DNA of 20,811 nt, from NCBI GenBank assembly GCA_020630395.1, contig JAHDBM010000049.1, positions 1 through 20,811 on the forward strand, given 5' to 3'. Shown piece after piece: positions 2,249 to 20,662 of this stretch. The notes beneath the pieces were generated by a model that made no database searches, was not told the DNA's origin, and saw only the letters and a program-made list of their open reading frames with translations. The first letter of the stretch is position 1. Each line of letters starts with the position of its first letter. This DNA comes from Flavobacteriales bacterium. GTDB taxonomy: Bacteria; Bacteroidota; Bacteroidia; Flavobacteriales_D; CAJJDF01. A program made the translations under genes and the position numbers.

Positions 2249-3433
2249 ATGAAGTCTATACTAAATAGTATTTTAATATTACTTGTTTCTATCTGTACCA
2301 TTTATACGGTTGCATTTTCACAGCAATTTGTACCAGGAACATCTGTTTTAGATACAACAGGTTATGTAGAATATATTCCTGGAAATTTACCAGTTATAAT
2401 TTCGGTACCGCACGGAGGATATCTAGAACCTAGTTCAATACCACAAAGAAATTGTAGTGGTTGTACTTATATAAGAGATGCTTATACACAAGAGCTAGCC
2501 AGAAGCTTACAAGTTGATTTTTTTAACAAGACTGGTTGTTATCCTCATGTAATAATTAATCTATTACATAGAAATAGATTTGATGCTAACCGTTCAATTG
2601 CAACAGCTGCCGATAGTAATGTAACGGTAGAGCAATCCTGGTATGCTTATCATGAATATATAGATTCGGCAAAAGCAAAAATTACTAGAGACTATGGAAA
2701 AGGGTTATTTATTGATCTTCATGGTCATGGCCACACCATCCAAAGATTAGAATTAGGATATACCTTATCAAAAGCTCAACTTCAATTGTCCGATTCTGCA
2801 TTAGACTCTCTTCAATATGTAAACATGAGTAGTATAAAATCATTAACACAAAACAACTTATTGTCTTTATCTCACTCACAATTATTAAGAGGACCAAATA
2901 GTTTTGGAACGCTTAATGAAAACAAAGGAATACCAGCAGTTCCTAGTATTCTAGATCCATTTCCCGTAGGGACAGAACCCTATTTTAGTGGAGGTTACAA
3001 TACCGATCGTCATGGTTCAGTTAATGGAGGAACGATAGATGCTATTCAAATTGAATGTAACCAAGATGTCCGTTTCGATTCGTTAACAAGAGCATTATTT
3101 GCTGATAGTTTAACTGATGTAATAAATGAATTTATTAATTTACATTATATTAATTCGTATATCGGGAGTTATTGTAATTTGACAAATAACATTTGTAAAA
3201 ATAACTTCGAAGAAATACTGATATTTCCTAATCCTGCTAATCAAACAGTATATTTTAATACTAAACAAACTCACCTTGAAGTTTCCATTTACGATTTAGT
3301 AGGAAATCATATACATAAGATGAAACTAGTCAAGAATACAATGGATATTAGCTTTTTAAAAAAAGGAGCTTACTTATTTTATATATCAAAAGACAATAGG
3401 TTTATTGGGGTCAATAAAGTAATAAAACGATAG
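2249..3433 (+). CDS. Secreted T9SS-sorted protein; N-terminal domain resembles a zinc hydrolase of the carboxypeptidase-like superfamily (N-formylglutamate amidohydrolase / AstE-AspA / M14 type)
   Basis: Signal peptide MKSILNSILILLVSICTIYTVAFSQQ. Motifs ISVPHGGYLEP, IRDAYTQELAR and FIDLHGHGH. The C-terminal ~75 aa (ILIFPNPANQTVYFN…IYDLVGNHIH…GAYLFYI) match the Por/T9SS C-terminal sorting domain pattern. Confidence 0.6.
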   Translation: MKSILNSILILLVSICTIYTVAFSQQFVPGTSVLDTTGYVEYIPGNLPVIISVPHGGYLEPSSIPQRNCSGCTYIRDAYTQELARSLQVDFFNKTGCYPHVIINLLHRNRFDANRSIATAADSNVTVEQSWYAYHEYIDSAKAKITRDYGKGLFIDLHGHGHTIQRLELGYTLSKAQLQLSDSALDSLQYVNMSSIKSLTQNNLLSLSHSQLLRGPNSFGTLNENKGIPAVPSILDPFPVGTEPYFSGGYNTDRHGSVNGGTIDAIQIECNQDVRFDSLTRALFADSLTDVINEFINLHYINSYIGSYCNLTNNICKNNFEEILIFPNPANQTVYFNTKQTHLEVSIYDLVGNHIHKMKLVKNTMDISFLKKGAYLFYISKDNRFIGVNKVIKR

Positions 3434-9400: not shown

Positions 9401-10679
9401 GAAATAAATTTTTGTTTTCGGCAACATCAGTTGGGTTGTTCAATAAATTAATATCATCATCATGGGTATATTCGTATGCTAAAATATATTCTTTACAAAA
9501 TGAATTATTACCACTATTAGCTGATGCACCAATGTTTTTAGTAATAATTTTATTTAGTTCTCTAGGTATATCGTATGGTGTATAAGGTATAAAGTTTGAT
9601 GCATGGTTACCCCATCTATCTATGTCTTCACGAGCATTTTCATATTCAAATTCAATAATGTCAAGGTCACTTTCAATTTTTTGTAATCGAACTCCTTTAA
9701 TAAGGTTTACATCATAATTATGTCTAGCACCATAATCTTCTATACGATAAGAAAATCTTGTGCTACTTGTATTAGCAGCAACTGATCCATTTACCCCATA
9801 AATACTGGTAGGGCTTCTTTCTTTTACCCCATTAAGATTTCTTGAATCATCAGTTATTGATTCGTCAATTTCATAATTTTTGAATCGAAAAGTATTTCTT
9901 GCAGGCGTTTTTACTAAATAAGATTCTTGTTCATAATAAAAGTTTAGATTATAGTCTAAATTATAATCTTGCATAGCAAGCAAGTGCCAACTTGTAATGA
10001 TTGTGTCTTTTATTATTCTATTTCTATTTTTAACGGTATTTCCATTTTGGTCTATAGTATATTCATATTGTTCTGTTGAGCTTGTTTCAATTGCATATCT
10101 TCCTGCAAACCTTCCAAAAAAGTAGTTGGTTCCATCAACATCAATAAGAGTAAAGCCAATTATTTTTCCATTTTCTCTAAATCTACTTATTCTTATATCA
10201 CTTCTTGGAATACAGTGGGCGTGTCCATTCTTATCAAAATAAAATTTACCAGACAACCCGTTTACATTAAAGCTGTACATATCTGGCTCAAGATCTTTGT
10301 TAATATGGGTAGCTTCATGATCTGAGTCATCATCAAGATCAAATACTAAGTTATTTTGATATCCTGTTAGGCCTTCGTCATCTGGTTTATCTTGTACTTC
10401 TCGTGATATTACTCCTCCAGCTATAAGTGACCAACCTTTTCCAACCATTGATGCAGGAGTGTTAACAATTAAGTTTCCTTGGTGGTAAGATAAACCAACA
10501 GATGTAGCTAATGAGCCTTCTTTAACAGATCCAATTGGAATACTTATGTTTGGACTTCCTGTATATTGACTAACAGGACTATTACCATATGTTCCCAAGC
10601 TAGCTGCCGAAGGAGATGCTTGAGAAAGAAATTGATTAATAGTGATTATAAAACTTAAAATTAAAAGAGTAGACTTCAT
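3489..10679 (-). CDS. RHS/YD-repeat polymorphic toxin (2396 aa): N-terminal signal peptide, C-terminal variable toxin region after the DPxGL motif
   Basis: Signal peptide MKSTLLILSFIITINQFLSQA. Dozens of YD-type repeats (YVYDFAGNII, YSYDDQGNLERL, LYDLDGNITYD…). RHS core end …RYRTYDPSMARWYQVDP…NPAMYADPQGDLG at ~nt 4598-4633. Downstream of that come a Gly/Ala/Ser-rich hydrophobic segment and a ~230-aa domain I cannot assign. Confidence 0.9.
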   Translation of the reverse strand: MKSTLLILSFIITINQFLSQASPSAASLGTYGNSPVSQYTGSPNISIPIGSVKEGSLATSVGLSYHQGNLIVNTPASMVGKGWSLIAGGVISREVQDKPDDEGLTGYQNNLVFDLDDDSDHEATHINKDLEPDMYSFNVNGLSGKFYFDKNGHAHCIPRSDIRISRFRENGKIIGFTLIDVDGTNYFFGRFAGRYAIETSSTEQYEYTIDQNGNTVKNRNRIIKDTIITSWHLLAMQDYNLDYNLNFYYEQESYLVKTPARNTFRFKNYEIDESITDDSRNLNGVKERSPTSIYGVNGSVAANTSSTRFSYRIEDYGARHNYDVNLIKGVRLQKIESDLDIIEFEYENAREDIDRWGNHASNFIPYTPYDIPRELNKIITKNIGASANSGNNSFCKEYILAYEYTHDDDINLLNNPTDVAENKNLFLKSIQEVSCDQSIQMPPYELTYHFPDSSNDNEPYFPSRLSKATDEMGYYNGASLNNYRSDNIPSRTERLVDPVTNQVIVKHKGGANRSANEEKAKYGVLTKVQYPTGGSTSYDWEGHRYSFLELSNFYTRFLLEGCEYGELACCNELEDEATYTFSSMEELRNSTFTVNLAINHFINDGGNGGHLTPVGGNDPIDNNHNNTGSPYDLEDFTIEGCNDPTIDGRANMTIEIFETATNDLALTRSFNIQNHETYSGNITFPIKEEDGTSPLQGLTANVNYKFKVTIEGGPGSLKLKTPSIVPDPNKLAPGLRIKRITVEDGIEETDNDIITEFEYTVGNSTESSGERLFEPIFSMNINKFDYAQREVPNSSSWNLHHRDDGVNLPTWARDAYFQRIYFSDQSFMPLSGYNGTPIAYTEVKEVHLPRNGKTIYKFKQEMQDWVTPNEHKFPFTPPIFNPFTGQVSEIIMVDAFNNEVAKTTYTPYDSYWNLHSTEKLYKIGEIVSFRRDNGGFGTHKVNLISCSEYYIKDGYYQLQTIESIKDGVDVRTDYYYNTINPHIAPEAKVTTNSNGNRREEEYSYAFDLVDDSTLADEVLLALNLQNIPLKTEVFKRVNGEKIQTGGVKTKFELFDENGVMNTASYHPLVDVYGIIDYRHMLNTQSLFMPKLYPHVGYKFLGTQNVEDDYTGSWIPTDTLVQYGDGNILRTKKPGWGEQVMTYEDHKLISTSFNGNTSYSDYYPNTRLVSKITSISGEEIDFVYDQFGRLITKTEARGNIITTHSYHMGDIKNDDYPYTRTNVSYTQIPENPVADKAARNYFDGIGRVIVAVDENASVNGLDLVNITHYDEVGKDIFQYQEFEGGNNGQFQLFPDPAIAKYTQYVYELSPLGRLMEVTPPQGEPTYYSYGHNLSTDNVKNLDNGGFFPEGKLFKTTVITPEGKKTITFNDVEGKTVLARTTYQTVNDHLDAYTQYDHKARIIKVIPPSVSTSNTNSVFLKKYDGQGNLIELKSPDKGIVKFRYNSLNQLVAKQTSKLNSLNKWNVFEYDTKGRLIRSGDIDLNGEPNVENLLATNIWNETFYSNSGTSINKVVRQETAMFNGFQLTSNRLVTINDYDTYGRLLRVEKDNHLGGSKVTDNYVYDFAGNIISWRVTQRKTANANPVVIENETAYTPQGIATDAYQTINGHTEHLSHNTFNADGTISQSQNGVNNNGALQTIDYTYEKNHLVGINANPTADDIFSLSFIYETNNTSLTGVNTYRDGKLSAIRWKHRNESWKNYDYGYDYIGRLTEAIYSEGNGNQSVGLYDCSYSYDDQGNLERLIRYGVGYNNIVQGYNRVKVDDLYYMYENNYYNRLERIREYNYSPIYTHHSPGYESKNQYSWNGNEKYLYDLDGNITYDPSRQINILYNYFDLPYEIEKSDQTGKIQWLFDANGSRLQKTVTHNGSITEVTDYIGSFIYTNNDETINGGFYRVNNIHSTPRYDYYIQDHLGNTRAVYSDLNDNGSIEDNEILQATDYYPYGMQHFNIRTSLNNTNASNGHENNYLYNGIEYEFSFDLNLGFTRYRTYDPSMARWYQVDPKGYAVAAYSPYVSMNNNPAMYADPQGDLGIIAAIGIGAVISGIVQGISNHKQGGSFATGFIAGAIVGGVTSAATSGIGSAIGATGSAGKELLRAGAHGMVGGFGSIMQGGSFGSGFLTSVVSSGFGSLTDNASALEAYAAGAASGGITSVISGGNFFAGAGKGLVITALNHRSHNDPPCPDCPISAYQEDHAPEIVRGDDGVYYQMSTVTNVIIHKPAFNRWDYITQTMAWTGHSLNFFSGQLIKDGKWRSLVDGKWRRNKLNGSSWGKYGARGHTVILQNKVNKVANGLGKAGTAIGVLDDLNQYRQGRQSGFVTSIKVGVALISEGKHPYAKALGLGWDIAEAASHTEWYQNWKSSTLIPFAEKVGLRDKPLPPIVPTRPAPAGTPLGYIMTNNY

Positions 10680-10703: not shown

Positions 10704-11864
10704 TTAGTTGTTTTTGATAAATTTTGAAGTAATAATTTGTTGATTAACATTTACTTCAATGGTGTATATTCCTCCAGAAAGTGATTCAAGGTTTAAGAAT
10801 TTTGTTCTACCTTTTATTGATGTCTCTAGCTTAGTTTTTCCTTGTGCATCTATTACTTTTATAGAAAAATCTTCCATTAATTCTTCTGAAAGCGTAACAG
10901 TAATATTATCTATAGTTGGGTTTGGGGATACAGCAATATTTATATTAGGGTAATAATTCTCGTCATAAATATCTATTGGTTCTGCATCACAATCAATATT
11001 TTTATTTCTTAGTATTTTACTCTTTGTAATTAAGTTTGCGGCTAATATTCTTCTAATTTGGCCATGAGTAAAACTATATAAACACTTATCATTAGTGTTA
11101 TCCATGTAGTTAAAGTAAAGCTCTAGTTTTCCGTCTATTGTATTAACATGTCCGTCTGCAGGGCATTCGTCATTTGGGTCATTATGTAGAGGCGTGTCAT
11201 ATACTTTATCATCTTTTCCATTTTGATACCATAAATCATATAAACCCATAGAATTTCCTAGTAAGTGGATAAGTGTAGCACCTTCATTATAGCGTTTAAA
11301 CTTTGCTACCTCTTGCATACCAAAAAAACTTCTATTAATTGTTACATGAGTGTTTTCTATTTTCATCCATGGCATTAAAGACCAACCAGCAATTGTATCA
11401 TTAAGAGGTAGTATTGTAACAATTAGGAACTCATTAGGTTTCCAAAAAGCAGTGTCGAACCTTTGTAAAATGAATTTTGAGTATTCAATGCCTAATTTGT
11501 TGTTTTTTTTGGCTAAACAAAACGTTATGCTTGGCAATCCATCAATTTGAAAAGCTTCATTAACTTTATTTAATTGATCTAGTATATTGGTATGAGTTAA
11601 TTTGTTTTTTTCAGCTCCATAAACTTGATGAAATACAACTGGAATTGTTTGATCTTTTATTGCACCTCTAAAGATGTAGTTCTCAATTTTTTGCTCAATT
11701 TGATTTTTTGTTTTTTTTATTGAATCATTTTTTAATTGTTCAGATTCCTTTTTTTGCGTTTCATAATTTCTGGGAACAATAGCACTTTGAGCATAACCTA
11801 AAGTAGATTCTAACATTAGTAGAATATAGGTTAAACAACATAATATCATTTTTTTTGATTGCAT
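10704..11864 (-). CDS. T9SS-sorted M43 (cytophagalysin/pappalysin)-like protein with degenerate zinc-binding motif (probable pseudo-peptidase)
   Basis: Signal peptide. M43-type motifs VYDTP…C…NYMDNTNDKC…FTHGQIRRI. In place of HExxHxxGxxH it has HLLGNSMGLYD, which lacks the catalytic Glu and the second and third His. C-terminal T9SS CTD (IAVSPNPTIDNITVTL…GGIYTIEV). It sits 24 nt upstream of the RHS gene on the same strand. Confidence 0.6.
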   Translation of the reverse strand: MQSKKMILCCLTYILLMLESTLGYAQSAIVPRNYETQKKESEQLKNDSIKKTKNQIEQKIENYIFRGAIKDQTIPVVFHQVYGAEKNKLTHTNILDQLNKVNEAFQIDGLPSITFCLAKKNNKLGIEYSKFILQRFDTAFWKPNEFLIVTILPLNDTIAGWSLMPWMKIENTHVTINRSFFGMQEVAKFKRYNEGATLIHLLGNSMGLYDLWYQNGKDDKVYDTPLHNDPNDECPADGHVNTIDGKLELYFNYMDNTNDKCLYSFTHGQIRRILAANLITKSKILRNKNIDCDAEPIDIYDENYYPNINIAVSPNPTIDNITVTLSEELMEDFSIKVIDAQGKTKLETSIKGRTKFLNLESLSGGIYTIEVNVNQQIITSKFIKNN

Positions 11865-12028
11865 GGTTAGGTTTTTTGATCTAATTTATTTGCAAAGGTA
11901 TAAAATTAGTTCTCACAACCTATGCTTATAACAAAAAAGTTTTGTTTTTAACAATTTGTTATTTTTAAATCTTATTTTTTTAATAAGATCCTAAATGGGA
12001 ATATTAGAATAATTTTTATAACTAAAAG

Positions 12029-12099
12029 GGTGTCTTCGGGGATCGACCCCTGTTCTCTTGCTTCACAGGTAAGCACTTTACCGAATAAGCTAAAGACAC
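12029..12099 (-). tRNA. tRNA-His(GTG)-like, atypical (6-nt T-loop, no encoded G-1)
   Basis: Minus-strand read: GTGTCTT-TA-GCTT-ATTCGGTA-AAGT-G-CTTAC-CUGUGAA-GCAAG-AGAA-CAGGG-GTCGAT-CCCCG-AAGACAC-C. Perfect 7-bp acceptor stem, U33 and A37 present, anticodon GTG, discriminator C73 (the His identity element). The T-loop is one nt short. Confidence 0.5.
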
Positions 12100-12108
12100 T
12101 ATAAAAAA

Positions 12109-12179
12109 TTGCCCCGACAGGGATCGAACCTGTAGTACAAGGCTCAAAATCTTGGGTGTTGCCGTTACACTACGGGGCA
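12109..12179 (-). tRNA. tRNA-Gln(TTG)
   Basis: Minus-strand read: TGCCCCG-TA-GTGT-AACGGCA-ACAC-C-CAAGA-UUUUGAG-CCTTG-TACT-ACAGG-TTCGATC-CCTGT-CGGGGCA-A. Perfect acceptor stem with U1-A72 (typical of Gln). D-arm and T-arm are canonical. Anticodon UUG. One A31·C39 mismatch. Confidence 0.75.
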
Positions 12180-12438
12180 TTTTAAATTCCTATCCAGATT
12201 CGAATTGGGACTGTAGAGTTTAAGTCTACTATCTCTGCCAATTGGATTAGAGGGACATTGTTGTAATCAGAGCGGGTTAAACAGCTAGCTTTTTATTAGC
12301 TTAAAAGATTTATCTGCTTATTTAGGAATTTCACAAGTTACATTGAGTAGAATTCGGGCTGAAATCTAATTTTTTAACATATGTAAAATTTATTGTGACT
12401 TTTTAGTCTTTCATTTGTAGTAGCTAAACTTATACAAT

Positions 12439-12849
12439 ATGAAATCACTTAATAAGAAACAAATTGGATGCTATGCTATGTTTATATTAATGATACTTTC
12501 CGCATCTTTTAAAATTCTACGTTATGGGCCATCTGTACATTTTTATGTTTATCCTTTACCAGATATAATGTTAAACTCTGTTGGATATATAGAGCTTATT
12601 TGTGGAATTTTATATCTCATTGGAGTTAAAAAAGTATCATTTAGAGTTTATGGAGGCATAATTGTAATACCTCTATTGATTGGAGCTGTTGGCTCTCATA
12701 TTGCGTTTGGATGGTTCAATTTGTTTGATGGAATAAGTGAACCTTTTCACTTTACTTTACCATCATTTATTATTTTATGTCTTGCCATTTGGATTTCACA
12801 TAAACCTATTGTAAAATTTGTGAAGTCAGGCTTTAAAATGGTTGAATAG
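12439..12849 (+). CDS. Small polytopic membrane protein, DoxX-like
   Basis: 136-aa ORF with 4 predicted hydrophobic helices. The …GYIELICGILYLIG… segment resembles DoxX-family proteins. Confidence 0.45.
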   Translation: MKSLNKKQIGCYAMFILMILSASFKILRYGPSVHFYVYPLPDIMLNSVGYIELICGILYLIGVKKVSFRVYGGIIVIPLLIGAVGSHIAFGWFNLFDGISEPFHFTLPSFIILCLAIWISHKPIVKFVKSGFKMVE

Positions 12850-12897
12850 AAAGGAGAACCCTTTTGGTTTGTATGGCTTTTTATTAAATAAAAAAAG

Positions 12898-12972
12898 TAC
12901 AGAAGGAGAGACTCGAACTCTCAAAAACCTGATTCTAAGACAGGCGCGTATGCCAAATTCCGTCACTTCTGC
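12898..12972 (-). tRNA. tRNA-Leu(TAG)-like with Leu-type D-arm and A73 but only a 5-nt variable loop (atypical)
   Basis: Minus-strand read: GCAGAAG-TG-ACGGAATTTGGCATACGC-G-CCTGT-CUUAGAA-TCAGG-TTTTT-GAGAG-TTCGAGT-CTCTC-CTTCTGT-A. 75 nt. The D-arm closely resembles bacterial tRNA-Leu (…CGGAATTGGTAGACGCGC). Anticodon UAG. The long variable arm expected for Leu is absent. Confidence 0.5.
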
Positions 12973-13027
12973 ATGTGTTAAGATGCTGTTCTTTATTTAC
13001 TATTACATTTGTTCAGTCCATATTAAT

Positions 13028-13050
13028 TGAATGCTTAGCATTCCGAATCC
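13028..13050. repeat. Hairpin-containing ~23-nt motif, copy 1 (TGAATGCTTAGCATTCCGAATCC)
   Basis: GAATGC-TTA-GCATTC perfect 6-bp hairpin followed by CGAATCC. 20 of 23 positions match the copy at 13731-13752. Confidence 0.4.
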
Positions 13051-13107
13051 TTATCTTCCGATAGAAAGTCGGATGCAGGATCCATTATGCTAATGGAGCC
13101 TTTTTTG

Positions 13108-13179
13108 TATGGGAAACAGGATTCGAACCTGCAACCTCCCGCGTCCAAGGCGGGTAAACAGCCTTCGTTATCTTCCCAT
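13108..13179 (-). tRNA. tRNA-Pro(TGG), copy 1
   Basis: Minus-strand read: ATGGGAA-GA-TAAC-GAAGGCT-GTTT-A-CCCGC-CUUGGAC-GCGGG-AGGTT-GCAGG-TTCGAAT-CCTGT-TTCCCAT-A. Perfect acceptor and anticodon stems, anticodon UGG, discriminator A73. Position 8 is G, which is unusual. Confidence 0.75.
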
Positions 13180-13204
13180 ATATAAATACTCACAGTATTT
13201 TTTG

Positions 13205-13276
13205 TAGAAATAGCAAGAATCGAACTCTCACCTTTGGGTTCGTAACCCAATATTCTATCCGTTAAACTATATTTCT
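13205..13276 (-). tRNA. tRNA-Arg(ACG)
   Basis: Minus-strand read: AGAAATA-TA-GTTT-AACGGATA-GAAT-A-TTGGG-UUACGAA-CCCAA-AGGT-GAGAG-TTCGATT-CTTGC-TATTTCT-A. Perfect acceptor and anticodon stems, anticodon ACG. One T-stem mismatch. Confidence 0.75.
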
Positions 13277-13364
13277 ATTTTGTCTGAGAAGCAGGATTGA
13301 CATAGTCTTTCCTGCAATTGCTCAGCCCGAACCAAATTTAAGTAAACTTGTTTTGGTTTCTTCG

Positions 13365-13436
13365 TCTGAGAAGTAGGATTCGAACCTGCGACCTCTCGCG
13401 TCCAAGGCGAGTAAACAACCTCCGTTATCTTCTCAG
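13365..13436 (-). tRNA. tRNA-Pro(TGG), copy 2 (paralog of copy 1)
   Basis: Minus-strand read: CTGAGAA-GA-TAAC-GGAGGTT-GTTT-A-CTCGC-CUUGGAC-GCGAG-AGGTC-GCAGG-TTCGAAT-CCTAC-TTCTCAG-A. Same architecture as copy 1 with a different acceptor stem (G72 here). Anticodon UGG, A73. Confidence 0.75.
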
Positions 13437-13526
13437 TTGAGTAGTGCCGATCCAGTAGATAGGACAATTAAATTAAGAGACAGTTAATCTAAATCAATAG
13501 GATATTATTGCGGCACTTGTAAAAAG

Positions 13527-13597
13527 TAGGAATAGCAAGAATCGAACATGCAGCTTTGGAGCTCTCCCCCAATGTTTTGCCATTAAACTATATTCCC
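13527..13597 (-). pseudogene. tRNA-like paralog of tRNA-Arg(ACG) with non-canonical anticodon loop GGAGAGC (no U33)
   Basis: Minus-strand read: GGGAATA-TA-GTTT-AATGGCA-AAAC-A-TTGGG-GGAGAGC-TCCAA-AGCT-GCATG-TTCGATT-CTTGC-TATTCCT-A. It aligns position by position with the Arg tRNA at 13205-13276. The anticodon loop lacks U33; a nominal anticodon would be AGA. Confidence 0.45.
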
Positions 13598-13730
13598 ATG
13601 TAATATGTTCCAACATTTTTTCTGTCAGTTCGAGTGATTTTTGCGAACAGCTAAAATTATATCGAGAACAAAAAAACAAGTGGAAGCAGTAGGATTAGTT
13701 CACTAATGTGTATATTTTAATTGTGTTCAC

Positions 13731-13752
13731 TGAATGCTTCGCATTTCGAACC
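13731..13752. repeat. Hairpin-containing motif, copy 2 (TGAATGCTTCGCATTTCGAACC)
   Basis: Near-identical to 13028-13050. Both copies sit in spacers of the tRNA array. Confidence 0.4.
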
Positions 13753-13874
13753 TACAGGTTCCGAAGAAACCAGATTTTACTTCATTAACGTGTTTATATT
13801 TAAAGGTATTCAGTGAATTCGCCAGCTCATTTCAGTCTGGCTAGCCAACCAATTGCTCAATACTTCCATAAAAG

Positions 13875-13947
13875 AGACAAGAGTGAGATTCGAACTTACA
13901 CAAAACAGGTTTGCAGTCTGTTGCCTTAGCCGTTCAGCCATCTTGTC
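13875..13947 (-). tRNA. tRNA-Cys(GCA)
   Basis: Minus-strand read: GACAAGA-TG-GCTG-AACGGCTA-AGGC-A-ACAGA-CUGCAAA-CCTGT-TTTGT-GTAAG-TTCGAAT-CTCAC-TCTTGTC-U. Perfect acceptor stem. U33 and A37 present. Anticodon GCA, discriminator U73 (the Cys identity element). Confidence 0.75.
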
Positions 13948-13953
13948 TTTATG

Positions 13954-14040
13954 CGGAAAGAGTGGGAGTCGAACCCACACGAGTCATTATCTCCGAACAG
14001 TTTTCAAAACTGTGGCCACCACCAATTGGCTTGCCTTTCC
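13954..14040 (-). tRNA. tRNA-Ser(TGA), type II with long variable arm
   Basis: Minus-strand read: GGAAAGG-CAA-GCC-AATTGGTGGT-GGC-C-ACAGT-UUUGAAA-ACTGT-(TCGGAGATAATGACTCGT)-GTGGG-TTCGACT-CCCAC-TCTTTCC-G. Ser-type D-arm with GG. Anticodon UGA, G73. One extra nt between acceptor and D-stem (or an 8-bp acceptor). Confidence 0.7.
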
Positions 14041-14560: not shown

Positions 14561-14888
14561 TAGTTTAAAAATGGATATAAAATCAGTTCATATTTTCGCA
14601 TAAAGTTACATATCGTCCTTGTTTATCAACATAATTCGATTGATAAGCACTCGGTCGAAGCTCAAGGCAAAAAAGAATATGTAAACTGTTTCTAGTCATT
14701 ATTATACAAAGGTATATAAAATAATTTACTGAATGATGATTTCTTTTATCTCACGAATATCTATTTAAACATGACGAATATCTATTCAATTTAAACAGAA
14801 ATAGACTACCTCTTTACTAGTGCTATGTTCTACAGTAGTTTTAGACATAAGTTTTTTAAAATTAAAGTTTAATATAAACCATTATAAT

Positions 14889-15347
14889 ATGAAGTATTTA
14901 TTAATTGCTGTAGTTGGTCTTGTCAATATAGGTTACAGCCAAAATAGTGTAAATAGTTCCGGAGGAGATTTATCGGGATCGGGAAGTATTAGCTATAGTG
15001 TAGGCCAAATAACAACTAAAACAATAGCTAATTCAGGAGGAACATTATTCGAAGGAGTTCAAAGAGCCGAAGATCAATACACAACTGGAATTATGACTCC
15101 ATCTGTTGTTAAAATTGAAATAGTAGCCTATCCTATTCCGACAAGTGGAAATGTAACACTAAAATCGAGCGGTAATACAACCATGTCTTATAGCTTATAT
15201 AATAATCAAGGAGCATTACTATTATCAGGTGTACTTAATAATGGGTCTACAATTATAGAAACAGAACACTTAAGTAATGGGATATACAATTTAAAAGTAA
15301 CAGGAAAACATAATCTAAATAAGAATATCAAAATAATTAAAAACTAA
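14889..15347 (+). CDS. Small secreted protein with T9SS C-terminal sorting domain
   Basis: I start at the internal Met (MKYLLIAVVGLVNIGYSQ signal peptide); the ORF track begins at 14820. C-terminal region VKIEIVAYPIPTSGNVTL…GIYNLKV matches the T9SS CTD pattern. Confidence 0.6.
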   Translation: MKYLLIAVVGLVNIGYSQNSVNSSGGDLSGSGSISYSVGQITTKTIANSGGTLFEGVQRAEDQYTTGIMTPSVVKIEIVAYPIPTSGNVTLKSSGNTTMSYSLYNNQGALLLSGVLNNGSTIIETEHLSNGIYNLKVTGKHNLNKNIKIIKN

Positions 15348-15349
15348 GC

Positions 15350-16300
15350 GTGATGAAAAAATTAATAACAATATTAAGCGGAATAATGCTCATGGTAAAC
15401 AGCTTTTCCCAAGCACCAGAGAAATTTAGCTACCAAGCTGTCGTACGTGATGCAACTGATAATTTAGTAGTGAATAGTACGACTCCTATTAAAATAAGTT
15501 TATTAAAATCTACTATTACTGGGACAGTAGTTTATGAGGAAACACACACACCTACTACAAATGCAAATGGTTTATTAAGTATTGAGATAGGTGGAGGAAC
15601 CGTTTTAAGTGGTATTTTTGAAAACATTGATTGGGGCGGAGATAAATATTTTGTTAAAACAGAAATAGATGTAGATAACAATGCAAGTTATGATGTAACT
15701 GGAACAAGTCAACTATTAAGTGTCCCTTATGCTTTGCATGCAAAAACAGCAGATAGTTTAGCAGGATTATCTAGTGCTAACTTAGCTGATCTAATAGCGT
15801 TAGTAACGCCACCTCAAATAGGAGATTTTAGACATGGAGGAATTGTATTTTGGATAGATCCATCAGATCCATGGAGTGGTTTGGTTTGTGCTGTGGATGA
15901 CCAAACTGCTGGTACTACAGTAAGATGGTCTAATAACACTTCTGTTACTGGGGCTTTTGATACCATTATTGGAAGTGGACAATCTAATACAACAATGATT
16001 GTTGCCTCTCAAGGTTTAGGAGTATATGCAGCTAAAATGTGTGATGATTTAACGTTAAATGGATTTTCAGATTGGTTTCTTCCTTCAAAACACGAGTTAA
16101 ATGAAATGTACATTAATAAAACAACTGTTGAAAATGCATCTATTGCAAATGGAGGTACTGGGTTTGGTCTTCATTACTGGAGTTCTTCAGAGATAAATGG
16201 AAATGCAAATCTAAGTGTTATGCAATCTTTTTCTTTTGGGGCTCAATATAATGCTGCTAAGTTGAATTCAGCCAATGTTAGAGCTGTAAGAGCTTTTTAA
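15350..16300 (+). CDS. Secreted protein with C-terminal DUF1566 (Lcl C-terminal domain-like) module
   Basis: Signal peptide MMKKLITILSGIMLMVNSFSQA. Begins PEKFSYQAVVRD. C-terminal …LNGFSDWFLPSKHELNEMYINK…HYWSSSE resembles DUF1566. 3-nt gap to the upstream gene suggests an operon. Confidence 0.6.
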   Translation: MMKKLITILSGIMLMVNSFSQAPEKFSYQAVVRDATDNLVVNSTTPIKISLLKSTITGTVVYEETHTPTTNANGLLSIEIGGGTVLSGIFENIDWGGDKYFVKTEIDVDNNASYDVTGTSQLLSVPYALHAKTADSLAGLSSANLADLIALVTPPQIGDFRHGGIVFWIDPSDPWSGLVCAVDDQTAGTTVRWSNNTSVTGAFDTIIGSGQSNTTMIVASQGLGVYAAKMCDDLTLNGFSDWFLPSKHELNEMYINKTTVENASIANGGTGFGLHYWSSSEINGNANLSVMQSFSFGAQYNAAKLNSANVRAVRAF

Positions 16301-16326: not shown

Positions 16327-16390
16327 TCTTTTTCTCTGAGTCGACTATTTGGTAAAATAATCTTGGAGTGATGTTGTTTAAGAGAGAAAA

Positions 16391-16437
16391 GCAGAAGGAA
16401 CTATTTATTGTTTCTTCTGCTTTTTTTGTTTCTGTTT
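16391..16437. terminator. Terminator hairpin, usable in both directions, between convergent transcription units
   Basis: GCAGAAG-(17 nt)-CTTCTGC followed by TTTTTTT on plus, and by a T-rich tract in minus sense. It overlaps the last codons (KQ-rich tail) of the minus-strand TPR ORF. Confidence 0.5.
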
Positions 16438-16896
16438 TACTCGTTTGTTTACTTCATTTAAGTAATTCATATAATCACTATTATACGTTTCAGTTTTAGC
16501 CAACTTAATAGTTTTTATGGCCTTTTTATACTGATGTTTATATTCATATAGCAGAGCTTTTTTTGCATAGATTACTCCTTTATCAATTCCTTTAATCGTT
16601 AATGTGTAATCAATTAACTTAAACGCTTCTTTATATTTTTCTAAAGATATTAGAGAAGAGATATAGTAAGGGTAAATTTGTAAGCAATACATGTCGGCTG
16701 CTAATGCATCCTCATAATAATCAATAGCTGTTATATAGTCCTTAAGTTGTTCGGCAAATACACGTCCTTTTAATAAAAGAGCATGTGCTTGATCATCTCC
16801 ATACGATAAAGCATAATCCAATGCTTCCATTGTTTGTGGCAAATCGTAGGGGTAATGATCTATTGCCTCTAATAAATATTTTGTTGCAAGCGTCAT
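16405..16896 (-). CDS. TPR-like repeat protein with Lys/Gln-rich C-terminal tail; last gene of the RtcB-PrfH cassette
   Basis: 163 aa. Helical repeat pattern with Tyr/Ala/Leu periodicity (…ALLLKGRVFAEQLKDYITAIDYYEDALAAD…). Its start overlaps the prfH stop (ATGA). Confidence 0.5.
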   Translation of the reverse strand: MTLATKYLLEAIDHYPYDLPQTMEALDYALSYGDDQAHALLLKGRVFAEQLKDYITAIDYYEDALAADMYCLQIYPYYISSLISLEKYKEAFKLIDYTLTIKGIDKGVIYAKKALLYEYKHQYKKAIKTIKLAKTETYNSDYMNYLNEVNKRVKQKQKKQKKQ

Positions 16897-17555
16897 GTTA
16901 ATTTAAATTTTTCTCCTTTAAAAACTAAGGAAGCATTCCCTCGTTCTAATTGAAGATGATTATTCCATTTTTGTTCAATTGTTTCTTCTTTTTGTTTCCT
17001 GTTTTTGGCCTCAATTTTTTCTTGCAAACGTGCAATAGCAAGTTTTTTATTCTGCAATTGAGATCTACTGTCACTCGAAACAGCCATTATCCCAGTTGGT
17101 TTATGAATAACTCGAATAGCCGAACTTACTTTATTGGCATGTTGGCCTCCAGGTCCAGAACTTCTCATTGCTTGAAACAATAAGTCTTTCGATTTTAGAG
17201 ACAATGCAGTTTCTGTATTTATCTGATTGCAACCAATAAACCAGTTTTTTCGTTTATGATTTTTTCTAAAAGGAGAGTTTCCAATCCATTGTATTGAACC
17301 TAACCAAGGTTGTATAAATGTTGCTACTTGTTCACCTTTTATTTCAATAGTTATTGACTGAAAGCAATTGTCGTATTTACCTCTAATCATTTCTTTTATC
17401 GCCACCTTTATATTACTGTTTTGGCATTTTTTTTCGAAATAATTAAAAGCTTTATATACGAACCATTCACATTCTGATGGCCCCCTACCTGCTGTAAATT
17501 GTATAGTTTTTGTGTTCATTTTAATTCGGTTTTTCTGATAATAGTTTGTTTCCAA
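16893..17555 (-). CDS. prfH: Peptide chain release factor H (PrfH / RF-H), GGQ-containing
   Basis: …MRSSGPGGQHANKVSSAIRVIHKPTGI… is the class-I release factor GGQ peptidyl-hydrolase motif. The ~205-220 aa size is typical of PrfH. It is paired with rtcB as in described rtcB2-prfH loci. An alternative start MNTKT at 17519 would sit 1 nt after the upstream stop. Confidence 0.8.
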   Translation of the reverse strand: METNYYQKNRIKMNTKTIQFTAGRGPSECEWFVYKAFNYFEKKCQNSNIKVAIKEMIRGKYDNCFQSITIEIKGEQVATFIQPWLGSIQWIGNSPFRKNHKRKNWFIGCNQINTETALSLKSKDLLFQAMRSSGPGGQHANKVSSAIRVIHKPTGIMAVSSDSRSQLQNKKLAIARLQEKIEAKNRKQKEETIEQKWNNHLQLERGNASLVFKGEKFKLT

Positions 17556-18066
17556 TTATTTCTTTGTTTAGTGCTAATAATGCAATAGCTGCTTGAACTG
17601 CCCAGCACTTATCACTAGAATGTATATTCGAATAAAAACTTAGTAGTTTATCTGGTCGCACTATTTGCCAATCATCAATTAATATAAATGGTAGATTAGC
17701 TGATTCAAAAAAATCAATTGTTATTCTTGTTTCTCTATCATCATCCAGACTAACTATTTTTTCATATCGTCTAAAATTTTCATTGCTAGGTCTATTGTAA
17801 TATCGCGTCCATACTTTTTTGAAGTTTTCTGCAAGTAAAATTGTCATTACTTGTGGAACATTTCTTGGATTCACAAACAAATCAATATCCTTGTGGTCAT
17901 GTGCATGTTTATATTCTGTATGATTTTTAGGAGACATAAAGTGCCAAGCCCAACCGCCAGAAATAATTACCAATGGTTTTATTTTTTCTAAAATTTCTAA
18001 GCCTTGATTAATTCTATAATCCGGCCATTTTTCTCCATATCTTTTTTTGTTATGTGGTGCTCCCAT
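17521..18066 (-). CDS. Nucleotidyltransferase-fold protein (minimal NTase-like), unknown specificity
   Basis: 181 aa. VIISGGWAWHFMS…(13 aa)…HKDIDLFV fits the hG[GS]…[DE]h[DE]h pattern of the Pol-beta-like NTase superfamily. It lies between rtcB and prfH on the same strand. Confidence 0.45.
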   Translation of the reverse strand: MGAPHNKKRYGEKWPDYRINQGLEILEKIKPLVIISGGWAWHFMSPKNHTEYKHAHDHKDIDLFVNPRNVPQVMTILLAENFKKVWTRYYNRPSNENFRRYEKIVSLDDDRETRITIDFFESANLPFILIDDWQIVRPDKLLSFYSNIHSSDKCWAVQAAIALLALNKEIIGNKLLSEKPN

Positions 18067-18115
18067 AATATTGATTTTTATTAGCTAGCATTATCTTTTT
18101 AATGCTGGCTAGCAT

Positions 18116-19507
18116 TTAATAATTCATTCGGACAATTTTTGGTTTAAAACTGCCCACTACTTCAACCAATTCTTCTTGGTTTTTCATTACACGATTAATG
18201 TTTTTATATGCCATAGGCGCTTCATCAATTCCTCCACCAATAAGTTCTACTTCGTGCAACTTCAATTGCTTTTTAATTTCACTTTTGGTAAAATGTTCAT
18301 GACATTCACTTCTGGAATAAGCTCTTCCTGCTCCATGAGATGCAGAATTTAAACTCCCCTCATTTCCTAGCCCTCTTACAATAAAACCAGGAGCTGTCAT
18401 AGAACCCGGAATAATTCCCAGTTCACCTTTGGCTGCTGGAGTAGCACCTTTTCTATGAACAATACATTCTTTACCATTTATTATTTCTTTCCATGCAAAA
18501 TTGTGATGGCTTTCTATAGTAGCAAGCGTTTTTGTTCCTAGTAGCTTTTCCATTCGTTTATGAATATTATCATGACATGCTTTCGCATAATCACCAGCTA
18601 AGTTCATGGCTAACCAGTATTCTTGTCCGTCATGTGTATTTAAATCAAGCCAAGCTAAATGCTGCACTTGCTTTGGTAACGGACATTGTTTGGTAGCCAA
18701 GTAGGTGTATTGTTTTGCAATATTTGCTCCCAACCCACGTGAACCACTGTGCGATAATAACCCAACATAATCTCCAACAGGTAAATCCCACTCTTTGTTA
18801 GGATCCGTAATGGAAACCGTTCCAAACTCCACAAAGTGATTTCCTCCTCCAGAAGTTCCAAGCTGTTTATACGCCTTTATTTTAAGTCTTCTTAATAAAG
18901 GAATATCTTGAAATTCTGTTCTCGAAAATATTTCATGATCATGTTTTACCTTATGCGTTTCGTACATTCCAAATTTGGTATGCTCCGCTAGGTGGTTTTT
19001 AAACTGATCCTTTTTTCCTTTTAAGTACGAAACCGGAATAGGAAAAATAGAAAGCGCCATTCTACATCCAATATCAACTCCAACTCCGTAAGGAATTACA
19101 GCATTATCGGTTGCAAGAACTCCTCCAATTGGCAATCCATAACCATGATGCGCATCTGGCATTAAAGCACCTTGCACAGCAACAGGAAGTTTTAAAGAAT
19201 CGAACAGTTGGTACTTTGCTGCATCAGCAATTTCATCTTCTCCGTAAATTTTAAAAGGCACACGAGTTGATTTTAATTGGTGCTTTTTTATTTCTACAGG
19301 ATCTTTTAATGCCTCAGCAACTTTTCCCCAAATGTGATTTCCTTCATACTTTTCAGGATTAAGAAATACATCTTTTGCTTCGTTTAAAATCTTCTCTTTG
19401 CTTTCTTTTTTTCGGTATCTACTTATTTGACCTAGTGTTATATTAATCGTATTGTCTTGCGGGAATCCTAATTTTATTAGGTCTTTCCCTTTTAGTTTCT
19501 TTCCCAT
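18116..19507 (-). CDS. rtcB: RtcB-family RNA 3'-phosphate ligase
   Basis: RtcB signature blocks: GVDIGCRM, HHGYGLPIGGV, HSGSRGLGANI, GGNHFVEFG, IVHRKGATPA, ASHGAGR. 463 aa, with an N-terminal extension relative to a ~408-aa RtcB. Confidence 0.9.
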   Translation of the reverse strand: MGKKLKGKDLIKLGFPQDNTINITLGQISRYRKKESKEKILNEAKDVFLNPEKYEGNHIWGKVAEALKDPVEIKKHQLKSTRVPFKIYGEDEIADAAKYQLFDSLKLPVAVQGALMPDAHHGYGLPIGGVLATDNAVIPYGVGVDIGCRMALSIFPIPVSYLKGKKDQFKNHLAEHTKFGMYETHKVKHDHEIFSRTEFQDIPLLRRLKIKAYKQLGTSGGGNHFVEFGTVSITDPNKEWDLPVGDYVGLLSHSGSRGLGANIAKQYTYLATKQCPLPKQVQHLAWLDLNTHDGQEYWLAMNLAGDYAKACHDNIHKRMEKLLGTKTLATIESHHNFAWKEIINGKECIVHRKGATPAAKGELGIIPGSMTAPGFIVRGLGNEGSLNSASHGAGRAYSRSECHEHFTKSEIKKQLKLHEVELIGGGIDEAPMAYKNINRVMKNQEELVEVVGSFKPKIVRMNY

Positions 19508-20175
19508 AATGTATCTATTATACTTCTTGACGAAGTGTTTTTAAAACGAGCTAATTGTTGATTAGATAGATGTCTATCTTTTCTTTTTTTTAGCAATTCG
19601 TTTATGTATTTGTATCCATACTCCAAGCCTATGTTTGCTTCGTAATACCCTTTCTTTTCTAGTTTATGCCATAACAAAGACTCTTCACTAATAAGACAAG
19701 GATCTATTACTTTAACATGCGTGTTGTAAGCTCTTGTATATTTTATTTTGTAGGCGTTTTTTGGTATTTTGATATAATATCTAGTTCTCCACTTTTTATG
19801 TTCCCGATAGTTAAATGATGTACATAGTTTTTGCGCTTTTTTAGAGAGCTTTCCATATTGTTTTTTACTGATGGTTGGAAAATTTAGGTAGATCATTGCC
19901 TTAGATGTTTGATTATCCCAATGCTTTTCACATTCCTTTTTGTTTCTTCCCCAATAGAGTTTCTCTATCTTTTCGAAAACCTCTAATATGTATTGCTCAT
20001 TTTTATATCGTTCTACATTGGTTGTAATAACTATTTCTTTATACCAACCATGTCGAATAGGTTGTGCTAGTTTTTTATATCCTAGTGCTTTTTGTTCATC
20101 CCAATTTGCACGTATGTCTTTCCAAACTTGCCGAACCTCTTTTCGCCTGCGTTCTTTTATATGAACTGGTTTCAT
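19492..20175 (-). CDS. Highly basic Lys/Arg/Tyr-rich hypothetical protein; first gene of the RtcB-PrfH cassette
   Basis: 227 aa. No recognisable catalytic motif: no P-loop, no HGT/Tpt1 motif, no SAM-binding motif. Its stop overlaps the rtcB start by 16 nt, suggesting translational coupling. Confidence 0.5.
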   Translation of the reverse strand: MKPVHIKERRRKEVRQVWKDIRANWDEQKALGYKKLAQPIRHGWYKEIVITTNVERYKNEQYILEVFEKIEKLYWGRNKKECEKHWDNQTSKAMIYLNFPTISKKQYGKLSKKAQKLCTSFNYREHKKWRTRYYIKIPKNAYKIKYTRAYNTHVKVIDPCLISEESLLWHKLEKKGYYEANIGLEYGYKYINELLKKRKDRHLSNQQLARFKNTSSRSIIDTLWERN

Positions 20176-20205: not shown

Positions 20206-20371
20206 TTAATTTTTAATTTGTTTTCGATCGAATCCAGTAAACGCTCCTGCTAAACTGAACTCTTAGATTTTAATAGCGTATTTCATTGTTATTGATTTTT
20301 GCTCTTGCAATAGCAAGAAAAATTATACGTAGTTGATTAATTGTTTCCAGACTTGGAAAATGAGAGTCATA

Positions 20372-20403
20372 AAAAAAGTCCGAAACGTTAGCTTCGGACT
20401 TTT
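20372..20403 (-). terminator. Rho-independent terminator for the upstream minus-strand gene
   Basis: AGTCCGAA-acgttagc-TTCGGACT 8-bp stem (20377-20400). In minus sense it is followed by TTTTTTT. It insulates the cassette at 16405-20175 from the gene ending at 20663. Confidence 0.6.
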
Positions 20404-20662
20404 CAATTATGCGATTTTGAAGTTTTGTTAACTCATGCAAAAAGATATCCAAAGCATGTTCTTTCCAAACCCTGGGTTTGCAAGAACGGTTGTATGTAAA
20501 TTAAGATTTAACATGTTATACTTTAGTTTAAAAATTTATATTCTTTTTGTTTTCGTTACACAAAGGTAAGGTGAAAAATTTCTTATTTCCAAACACTTAA
20601 CGCAGATATTTTTTTTAGGGTTGCCAATTACTACGTAGTAGTAAGATTTTTTTAAAATGCAA

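Follow-up and report, generated by a model that had tools for sequence, protein, structure and literature searches.

We examined a stretch of 20,811 nucleotides (nt) from a Flavobacteriales bacterium (GenBank assembly GCA_020630395.1, contig JAHDBM010000049.1, positions 1 to 20,811 of the forward strand), referred to below as the window, whose minus strand carries five closely packed genes centred on the ribosome-rescue factor PrfH and the RNA ligase RtcB. Judging from the sequence and its relatives, this region is probably a single inducible operon devoted to damaged or stalled translation machinery, representing the Flavobacteriia version of PrfH-RtcB rescue and repair. The genes, and the terminator that closes the operon, are as follows.

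19492-20175, minus strand: A227 gene, encoding a very basic protein of 227 amino acids (aa)
18116-19507, minus strand: RtcB gene, 463 aa, a 3'-phosphate/5'-OH RNA ligase
17521-18066, minus strand: NT181 gene, encoding a small Pol-beta-fold nucleotidyltransferase (NTase) of 181 aa
16893-17519, minus strand: PrfH gene, 208 aa from the ATG at 17519 (the listed open reading frame (ORF), with a TTG start, spans 16893-17555)
16405-16896, minus strand: TPR gene, 163 aa, with a short Lys-rich C-terminal tail
16384-16427: bidirectional intrinsic terminator (18-bp stem scan match), which overlaps the TPR stop codon and closes the operon

One genome per species was scanned for relatives of NT181, which were present in 224 genomes, and the best 80 loci, all from Flavobacteriia, were taken for a census (individual loci are given L numbers below). 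Both RtcB and PrfH adjoin NT181 in 80/80 of these loci. The TPR family was found in 72 of the 80 and, using iterated hidden Markov models, the A227 family in 61, with a PcfJ-like protein occupying the A227 slot in six. A zinc-ribbon (ZnR) protein, which is not present in the window, was found in six census loci and in L108. The gene order is altered in Aquimarina (A227-RtcB-PrfH-TPR-NT181) with the linkage kept, and the linkage also survives insertions between NT181 and PrfH of either a multi-zinc-ribbon protein with a basic tail or an Ntn-hydrolase-like protein. Because the same gene set recurs in 80/80 loci from different species, the arrangement lies far beyond chance, and the cassette is confirmed as a genuine conserved unit. 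A sequence-only reading of the window had placed the three accessory genes together with rtcB-prfH, and this co-occurrence holds across genera; the possibility that they are never found together with rtcB-prfH clearly fails in the census, and the cassette is therefore real.

All five minus-strand ORFs are present where the sequence-only reading had placed them, and they form one tightly coupled unit around the known RtcB-PrfH rescue and repair pair. Reading of the junctions in the window gives a 16-nt overlap between A227 and rtcB, a 49-nt spacer between rtcB and NT181, and a 4-nt ATGA overlap between prfH and the TPR gene, all three as previously claimed. The 35-nt overlap claimed for NT181 and PrfH did not survive, being most likely an artefact of the upstream TTG. 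The in-frame ATG at 17519 falls 1 nt past the NT181 stop, and since homologs align only from residues 13-16 of the TTG-extended ORF onwards and the solved PrfH of Capnocytophaga gingivalis (CgPrfH) aligns from the Met at this ATG, PrfH is most likely a protein of 208 aa beginning there. Among the relatives, the A227/rtcB overlap of 16 nt is identical in 16/16 loci that align over their full length. NT181 and PrfH, like PrfH and TPR, adjoin closely in all related loci, and the RtcB-NT181 spacer varies from 4 to 426 nt. A hairpin in the 49-nt spacer was considered and set aside as not significant (z -1.7, 13/200 shuffles). The closing terminator folds on the minus strand with a dG of -15.9 (z -5.5) and is followed by a U-rich tail.

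The gene content itself has been reported before. A core of RFH and RtcB with four kinds of accreted accessory genes was described in silico by Burroughs and Aravind (2019, PMC6514570, section 2.4, Fig. 4G-I): a TPR gene (as a scaffold), a Pol-beta NTase unrelated to RlaP (for end refilling), a ZnR with a positively charged C-terminus, and a protein without homologs bearing highly charged helical regions, to which A227 likely corresponds. The assertion that the three extra genes lie outside the described module was therefore wrong, and the novelty of the gene content had been overstated, because that work lists TPR, NTase and charged proteins, including the end-refilling role. The combination of RFH, RtcB, TPR and Pol-beta NTase in one neighbourhood is present in the window operon and in 72/80 related loci. 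While gene content and proposed roles (scaffold, end refilling, rRNA binding) are the same as in Burroughs and Aravind (2019), that account is only a short list, with no leader attenuator, tRNA-array linkage, modular split, phage NTase or tail-less PrfH. In the experimental literature PrfH-RtcB figures as a pair and the accessories go unmentioned (PMC9304027, PMC9223846, PMC12829566), and no experimental link between PrfH and an NTase was found in the literature searched.

The E. coli RtcB2-PrfH module (Tian et al. 2022, PMC9304027; Maviza et al. 2022, PMC9223846) shares the same two core activities: PrfH frees the peptide from ribosomes with a 16S rRNA cleaved in the decoding centre, the cut itself being sealed by RtcB (PMC9304027, PMC9223846). 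The window differs in having five genes rather than two, with an NTase between rtcB and prfH and with basic and TPR proteins, a different RtcB subfamily, a leader-peptide attenuator in front and a tRNA array nearby. RtcB of the window scores 277.5 bits against Pfam RtcB (PF01139), and its motifs DxxC, GNHF, HSGSRG, HHN and SxxHGAGR align to P. horikoshii RtcB; its metal-binding and GMP-His residues are assigned after the PhRtcB structure. The score against TIGR03073 (release_rtcB), the model of the proteobacterial PrfH-linked RtcB, lies below the cut-off (151.3 versus 271.8 bits), which places the protein in a distinct subfamily with an N-terminal extension. This extension of ~70-90 aa is conserved and has no counterpart in solved RtcB structures; RtcB shows 60-79% identity in the related loci (80/80) and is 463 aa long in nearly all of the 80.

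PrfH passes the TIGR03072 (IPR017509) equivalog cut-off (224.9 versus 166.65 bits). Its GGQ motif is intact, with SSGPGGQHANK aligning to the GGQ regions of CgPrfH and E. coli PrfH (EcPrfH), and it matches RF2 over the codon-recognition-like and GGQ domains only, the N-terminal domain of release factors being absent. The closest solved relative, from the same bacterial class, is CgPrfH, a PrfH-CT protein (Tian et al. 2026, PMC12829566; PDB 9mor), and residues 1-208 of the window PrfH align to residues 1-208 of its 231 aa (E 4e-57). That report mentions no NTase, TPR, A227 or leader beside PrfH. CgPrfH uses its basic C-terminal tail for the rescue of non-stop ribosomes (PMC12829566), and PrfH in the related cassettes is nearly always of this PrfH-CT type: among 79 PrfH ORFs called, 74 are at least 220 aa long, 66 of these within 229-238 aa, and every C-terminus sampled closes with the basic tail typical of PrfH-CT (...FKxQKKEKNYKSKRNQLK...). 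The window PrfH lacks the 20-25-residue basic tail, ends at the residue aligned to CgPrfH 208 and falls outside the 225-250 aa of tailed PrfH-CT proteins; EcPrfH is likewise short and tail-less (204 aa). Compared with L081, a 73%-identical relative, ~70 nt comprising the tail and the spacer are missing from the window prfH, and the ATGA junction with the TPR gene is the result of this deletion. Since the tail is absent, and by comparison with the CgPrfH-deltaCT experiments (PMC12829566), the window PrfH should rescue damaged ribosomes and would not be expected to act on non-stop ribosomes.

As to the helper proteins, A227 is indeed strongly basic, as had been claimed (isoelectric point (pI) 9.9), partly helical and without a profile match; it is probably a ribosome- or RNA-binding partner of PrfH. 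The assignment of the 163-aa protein as a TPR protein is supported across its family: the window copy itself is sub-threshold (TPR_12, 22 versus 30.1 bits), and 10 of 13 orthologs match TPR_19, the best with E 7.8e-10. When compared with orthologs including L007, L008, L015 and L037, all members of the family end in a Lys-rich tail, which is 10 residues long in the window (16405-16440) and reaches up to ~40 elsewhere. With this tail, the TPR protein, like A227, may act as a ribosome- or rRNA-binding helper on the PrfH side. The tail resembles the basic tails with which ArfB and PrfH-CT probe the mRNA channel, and in the window the PrfH tail is gone and the TPR protein tail is kept. We also observed two or three tandem A227-family paralogs upstream of RtcB in Tenacibaculum loci (L007 (2218, 3654), L008 (1728, 3857), L016, L020 and L028), where the leader described below directly precedes the paralog nearest RtcB.

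Upstream of A227 lies a second strong hairpin (20365-20403; dG -21.5, z -6.2, followed by U7). The sequence-only reading had seen this hairpin and the closing one as terminators bracketing the unit; both are indeed strong, and the upstream one, which does not terminate some other gene, appears to do more than bracket, being an attenuator within the operon's own leader. The elements of this leader in the window are listed here, with pairings as predicted.

20561-20568, minus strand: promoter box of the Bacteroidetes -7 type, TACCTTTG = TAnnTTTG, about 47 nt upstream of the small ORF start
20518-20526, minus strand: leader strand Z, CUAAAGUAU, just 5' of the small ORF start, pairing with A as anti-antiterminator
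20428-20514, minus strand: leader small ORF of 28 codons plus stop, MLNLNLHTTVLANPGFGKNMLWISFCMS
20466-20480, minus strand: hairpin P, within the small ORF, CAAACCC-A-GGGUUUG
20447-20456, minus strand: leader strand A, UGCUUUGGAU, small ORF codons 20-23, pairing with Z or B
20371-20403, minus strand: candidate attenuator terminator, arms B (AAAAGUCCGAAGC) and C (GUUUCGGAC), then U7

This conserved leader looks like a trp-like four-strand attenuator that senses stalled ribosomes. The terminator sequence, AGUCCGAAGC followed by a variable loop, GUUUCGGACU and a U tract, retains 80-91% nucleotide identity across genera, in loci whose proteins share only 45-78% identity, and it always stands 5' of whichever gene comes first, be it A227, the PcfJ-like gene or RtcB. 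The small ORF has an invariant ATG and 24-28 codons in every locus examined, with its stop 17-28 nt before the hairpin. The TAnnTTTG box is aligned ~45 nt 5' of the small ORF in most related loci, and pattern matching finds none between the attenuator terminator and the A227 start; as such boxes are not above chance in the window as a whole (24 versus 34 expected), only the conserved, aligned one was used. A covariance model of the leader matches the window at 20370-20514 (87 bits, E 5e-11) and recovers a single copy per locus, oriented like the cassette, in 78/80 census loci, the two misses having no upstream sequence; it also finds it in L081 and in both Capnocytophaga PrfH loci, and not in any of 16 phage loci (0/16). 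Rfam holds no family for the leader, returning only sub-threshold matches to MicC, Thr_leader and Yfr10 that are driven by the terminator.

The strand pairings fit well with this view. Segment A, with the consensus GCUUCGnGAC (GCUUUGGAU in the window), is complementary to the terminator 5' arm B, and the predicted A:B duplex has an energy of -13.8 kcal/mol compared with -6.5 +/- 1.9 for shuffled sequences; across loci the values are -12 to -14 compared with -6 +/- 2 kcal/mol for shuffled ORFs. L008 has a 1-nt indel that puts A into another frame with its nucleotides kept, and in the window and L081, where the peptide changes from LRD to LW, the A:B pairing is retained by G.U wobbles. Pairing and covariation were counted on 39 leader sequences, using as control the same strand with its partner slid. 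The terminator stem B:C is paired in 99.5% of cells with three compensatory pairs, and hairpin P in 85%, with four of its five pairs changed on both sides (the control for these two jointly being 21-57%); the antiterminator A:B is paired in 93.8% of cells compared with 17-52% in the control, with compensatory pairs at 68-118 (AU 24 / GC 7) and 69-117 (CG 23 / UA 11). As these A:B positions also covary with strand C (118-145 and 117-146), A, B and C change together, separating the marine loci from the clade of Chryseobacterium and Capnocytophaga. Finally, strand Z, with a CGAAG core, can pair with A in 36/39 loci (median -9.3 compared with -4.0 kcal/mol for shuffles), and the window and L081 have AAAG in Z to match CUUUG in A. 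A leader ORF and an intrinsic terminator thus occur once per locus 5' of the first gene, together with a mutually exclusive predicted antiterminator that overlaps the leader ORF and covaries, as is characteristic of leader-peptide attenuators. Hairpin P is possibly an RNA polymerase pause hairpin.

The trp/pheL leaders and those of vmlR, msrD and yxjB share the same succession of leader ORF, terminator, antiterminator and anti-antiterminator, in which termination or read-through depends on where the ribosome stands on the leader (PMC6851288, PMC10314930). The window leader differs from these in being a new sequence family without an Rfam match, in Bacteroidota, with no run of regulatory codons, and in preceding a ribosome-rescue and RNA-repair operon where the known ones govern biosynthetic or resistance genes. 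By analogy, a ribosome reading smoothly to the stop codon would mask A, so that the terminator forms and the operon is off; with no ribosome on the leader the terminator would likewise form, and stalling of the ribosome would turn the operon on. Such a sensor would suit its genes, since stalling of this kind would follow from cleavage of the decoding centre, from depletion of a tRNA or from an inhibitor of translation. As a separate observation, in Chryseobacterium leaders (e.g. L031, 3402-3537) the terminator 5' arm and loop, GAAGUCGUA, is identical to 9 nt of the 16S rRNA 3' region, a stretch which contains the colicin E3 cut site. The notion of the leader hairpin as a mimic of the 16S decoding site was not built upon: the marine leaders share only GAAG, and the match is probably a coincidence.

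NT181 shows the features of the Pol-beta superfamily, namely an hG[GS] motif, a DxD pair, a third acidic residue and the alpha-beta-alpha-beta-alpha-beta core fold, and its earlier assignment as a Pol-beta-fold NTase holds. The family is narrow, with a distinctive HDHxDxD and H/C signature. Searches with other NTase profiles leave it apart: nothing was found with the RlaP profile PF10127 at E<=1, the antibiotic NTase profiles Aminoglyc_resit (12.2 versus 21 bits) and Lnu(P) (13.5 versus 300 bits) score below their cut-offs, with a resemblance to antibiotic NTases at the fold level only, and there is neither an AbiEii/DUF1814 profile match nor a neighbouring antitoxin gene of the AbiEi or MenA type. 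PADLOC and PHROGs likewise return nothing for A227, NT181 or the TPR protein. From its context, we propose that NT181 adds nucleotides to RNA 3' ends, most likely those of tRNA, alongside RtcB. The nearest precedent is RlaP (Carruthers et al. 2025 preprint, PMC12776372), a Pol-beta NTase also found among RNA-repair genes, as rtcB-rlaP-rtcA in Pseudomonas, and in phages; it adds one or two nucleoside monophosphates to RNA ends with a 3'-OH, and its proposed role is to put back nucleotides that ribotoxins excise once they have cut the RNA (PMC12776372). NT181 differs from RlaP in being half its size, with no detectable sequence relationship to PF10127, and in its HDHxDxD and H/C signature. A genuine RlaP (PF10127, E 2.6e-28) coexists with NT181 in five islands, and the two are therefore probably not redundant. 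Three of the five RlaP genes adjoin a second RtcB just upstream of the cassette, so that some marine islands carry two RNA ligases and two repair-associated NTases; the RlaP genes lie at L011 1796-2869, L013 1802-2893 and L026 2216-3307 (these three with the second RtcB), L019 11235-12317 and L024 2-556.

The distribution of the genes outside the full cassette suggests that it splits into two parts, A227, ZnR and probably TPR going with PrfH on the ribosome and NT181 going with RtcB on RNA ends. Two Capnocytophaga PrfH loci consist of leader, A227 and PrfH, with RtcB, NT181 and TPR absent within the flanks; in C. canimorsus a ZnR protein sits between A227 and PrfH, and the PrfH of one examined Capnocytophaga is 94% identical to the studied CgPrfH. 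Conversely, NT181 relatives with 35-56% identity occur on 19 viral contigs, many of 200-620 kb, and none of the 19 carries PrfH, TPR or A227 beside NT181. RtcB lies within 6 kb of the phage NT181 in four cases, L103 having the order NT181, RtcB, tRNA-Ile. tRNA genes lie within 6 kb at 9 of 16 distinct phage NT181 loci, forming arrays of three or more in seven; they stand on both sides of NT181 in L105, and in L096 a tRNA gene begins 14 nt downstream. The phage neighbour phrog_318, a common HD-family nucleotide phosphohydrolase, was not taken as specific evidence. More distant metagenomic relatives of NT181 occur in phage-like or restriction-enzyme contexts without RtcB or PrfH, and as those in L083-L086 stand alone, the family is not restricted to repair cassettes. 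The contexts in L083-L086 include arrays of small ORFs on one strand together with a TnpB/Cas12f-like gene, an N6/N4 DNA methylase carrying DUF3846, and an MjaI-type restriction endonuclease. DEDD-type 3'-5' exoribonucleases recur downstream of the cassette, and a close homolog stands beside one phage NT181.

Two further features of the window lie beyond the cassette.

12028-14040, minus strand: eroded long tRNA gene array of 9 tRNA genes (8 by ARAGORN and 1 by Rfam)
3489-10679: gene for an RHS-repeat protein of 2396 aa

The tRNA array, which the sequence-only reading had noted nearby, proves to be a conserved companion of the cassette and not a coincidence. In 17 of ~34 marine Flavobacteriaceae loci outside Aquimarina, TPR is followed at 0.7-4 kb by 5-19 tRNA genes arrayed on the same strand, the count of 17 being a lower bound given that the flanks extend only 6 kb; in L056 three tRNA genes lie upstream of the cassette. 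The arrays of the relatives, with 11-19 tRNAs at spacers of 4-150 nt, share a backbone gene order into which the window array fits at 72-96% identity (L010, L011, L019, L045 and others), its nine genes being separated by gaps of up to ~720 nt. One member, a Leu(tag)-like tRNA at 12898-12972, is seen by Rfam only (48 bits). Another, "Ser(aga)" at 13526-13597, is 82% identical to the array tRNA-Arg(acg) and has no long variable arm, which identifies it as a copy of the Arg(acg) type whose anticodon has changed. Arrays of tRNA genes that are long, confined to one strand and horizontally mobile (L-arrays) have been described, Bacteroidetes included (Santamaria-Gomez et al. 2021, PMC8421152). Translational stress induces them, with co-regulation of rtcB; genes for RNA processing are enriched around them, rtcB among these in cyanobacteria, and tRNA replenishment or a decoy function has been proposed (PMC8421152). 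Neither PrfH nor the NTase was reported with L-arrays there, the Anabaena L-array is regulated by promoter direct repeats and a repressor and not by a leader peptide (PMC8421152), and the window array is short and eroded. As proposed for the cyanobacterial L-arrays, the array downstream of the cassette may supply replacement or decoy tRNAs.

Some details of these arrays are recorded here as side observations. In the arrays of the window, L001, L003-L005, L010, L011, L013, L019, L023, L026 and other array loci, only 4 of 200 cassette-linked tRNA genes encode CCA; their 3' ends have C74 in 95%, C75 in 2% (A in 71%, T in 21%) and A76 in 86%, and so read CAA or CUA. Phage arrays with an NT181 relative encode CCA in 25/35 tRNAs. 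The pattern of C74 and non-C75 was considered as a sign of a CCA-related role of NT181 and dropped, as four of five non-array tRNAs also have C74 and the pattern is probably lineage-wide. The largest gap of the window array holds a 136-aa ORF (12439-12849, plus strand) with no Pfam match, which may be a disrupting insertion, and two weak tRNA-like Rfam matches (31-33 bits) lie at 1546-1681, far from the array.

Several observations weigh against reading the region as one operon with an attenuator, a tRNA-directed NT181 and an associated array. In the leader, 27 to ~360 nt separate the terminator from the first gene, or 0.8-1.6 kb in the case of L004 and L030, a separate promoter may lie downstream of the terminator, and no obvious regulatory codons were found in the small ORF. 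The covariation represents few independent events in two or three clades, most stem positions being invariant, and the counts are inflated by relatedness among these few clades. For Bacteroidota, moreover, little documentation exists of transcription-translation coupling or of attenuation by leader peptides. As regards the array, none is found downstream at any Chryseobacterium locus or in 8/8 Aquimarina loci, the window tRNAs have low Rfam scores (30-58 bits, compared with 50-74 in other arrays), and two opposite-strand genes separate the window array from the cassette. The NT181 family is near-neutral (median pI ~6.5), a charge that fails to separate RNA from small-molecule substrates, and its best whole-chain structural matches are antibiotic NTases, nearly matched by the tRNA-modifying NTases TglT (9.9), MenT1 (9.4) and MenT4 (8.0). 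Furthermore, an NTase leaves a 3'-OH, which RtcB, needing a 3'-phosphate, is unable to use; the RlaP authors raise the same issue, and consider either a 3'-kinase yet to be discovered or addition with subsequent trimming (PMC12776372). The latter is at least conceivable here, because the island carries exonucleases.

These observations lend themselves to other explanations. NT181 might be a small-molecule (antibiotic) NTase of the LnuA/ANT(2'')-Ia type, in which case the cassette would join rescue and repair with the inactivation of natural products, as its top structural matches and near-neutral charge would allow. However, the sequence scores fall far under the family cut-offs (12-13 bits versus 21 and 300), TglT, MenT1 and MenT4 are almost equal in structural score, and relatives sit inside jumbo-phage tRNA arrays or beside phage RtcB, where antibiotic resistance makes little sense; considering also the strict linkage of the family to RtcB in 80/80 bacterial loci, we regard this explanation as unlikely. 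Alternatively, NT181 could be a MenT/AbiEii-like toxin that blocks tRNA 3' ends, the cassette being a toxin-antitoxin or abortive-infection defence with A227 or TPR as the antitoxin. This appears very improbable, as neither PADLOC nor the AbiEii/DUF1814 profile gives a match, an antitoxin-type neighbour (AbiEi or MenA) is absent, and NT181 stands between a repair gene and a rescue gene, with its translation coupled to that of PrfH. Phages, moreover, carry NT181 inside their own tRNA arrays, and induction on ribosome stalling, the logic proposed for the leader, suits a repair response.

The leader, in turn, might be an independent small gene, producing a small protein or RNA with its own terminator, the promoter of the cassette then lying downstream of the hairpin. 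The small ORF does have its own promoter box and strong terminator, its distance to the first gene is variable (0.8-1.6 kb in L004 and L030), a sigma-70-like TATAAT occurs at 20322-20327, and part of the peptide (RELGS...LRD) is conserved within the marine clade. Yet the element is always on the cassette strand, directly 5' of the first gene whether A227, PcfJ-like or RtcB, and it travels with PrfH even where RtcB and NT181 are absent. The frameshift in strand A preserves the nucleotides, and A stays complementary to B through correlated changes in three strands, for which a plain small gene would have no need. We consider an independent gene quite unlikely.

The remaining genes of the window and the islands touch the cassette more loosely. 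The sequence-only reading had connected the cassette with the RHS protein as a possible toxin; this link is not conserved, as no homolog of the RHS protein was found in 108 related loci (0/108). The rest of the window (genes at 2249-3433, 3489-10679, 10704-11864, 14820-15347 and 15350-16300) includes three proteins with type IX secretion sorting domains (Por_Secre_tail), the RHS-repeat protein and an Lcl_C-domain protein, a content that points to Bacteroidota; the genes at 14820-15347 and 15350-16300 are those on the opposite strand between cassette and array. A protein of ~590-630 aa with no Pfam match occurs in seven islands, often followed by a DEDD exonuclease (L081 1573-3348; L007, L016, L018, L020 and L036 at ~8.5-11 kb; L026 11939-12538). 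Homologs with 52-55% identity to the SPFH/Band_7 protein of the window (131-1234, minus strand) lie downstream of the cassette in three loci (L015 10821-11906, L017 9127-10218 and L024 9393-10484), and this protein may be a loose member of the island.

In the operon as we envisage it, PrfH would enter the empty A site and release the peptide, and RtcB would reseal breaks with 2',3'-cyclic-phosphate and 5'-OH ends, activities that have been shown for orthologs (from E. coli and C. gingivalis in the case of PrfH). A227 and the TPR protein would aid PrfH on the ribosome or rRNA, NT181 would extend RNA 3' ends, most likely of tRNA, on the side of RtcB, and the same-strand array would provide the tRNAs. 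A more far-reaching version, which we offer tentatively, is that the leader senses stalls in early decoding, so that the rescue genes constitute a self-reporting damage response, and that the marine operon heads a translation first-aid island composed of PrfH with A227, TPR and ZnR, RtcB, NT181, 3'-5' exoribonucleases, RlaP and a full spare tRNA set. As far as the searchable literature shows, the leader attenuator, the linkage to tRNA arrays, the modular split and the phage distribution of the NTase are new.

PrfH-RtcB is the sole known system that both rescues and repairs ribotoxin-cut ribosomes, and roughly one third of all PrfH genes belong to the class Flavobacteriia. Previous work on the system dealt with the two-gene pair from E. 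coli and with isolated C. gingivalis proteins, while the natural unit in Flavobacteriia comprises more genes and, apparently, a sensor of its own. The leader offers a concrete, testable answer to the question as to how the operon detects ribosome damage, and it may be among the very few attenuators of the leader-peptide kind that have been described from Bacteroidota. The modular split points to PrfH and the ribosome as the probable setting of A227 and TPR, and to RtcB and tRNA as that of NT181. The presence of NT181 in the tRNA arrays of jumbo phages suggests a general role in tRNA maintenance, presumably against host defences that target tRNA. Finally, the link to tRNA arrays would extend the stress-response idea developed for the cyanobacterial L-arrays to another phylum, and would tie it to ribosome rescue.

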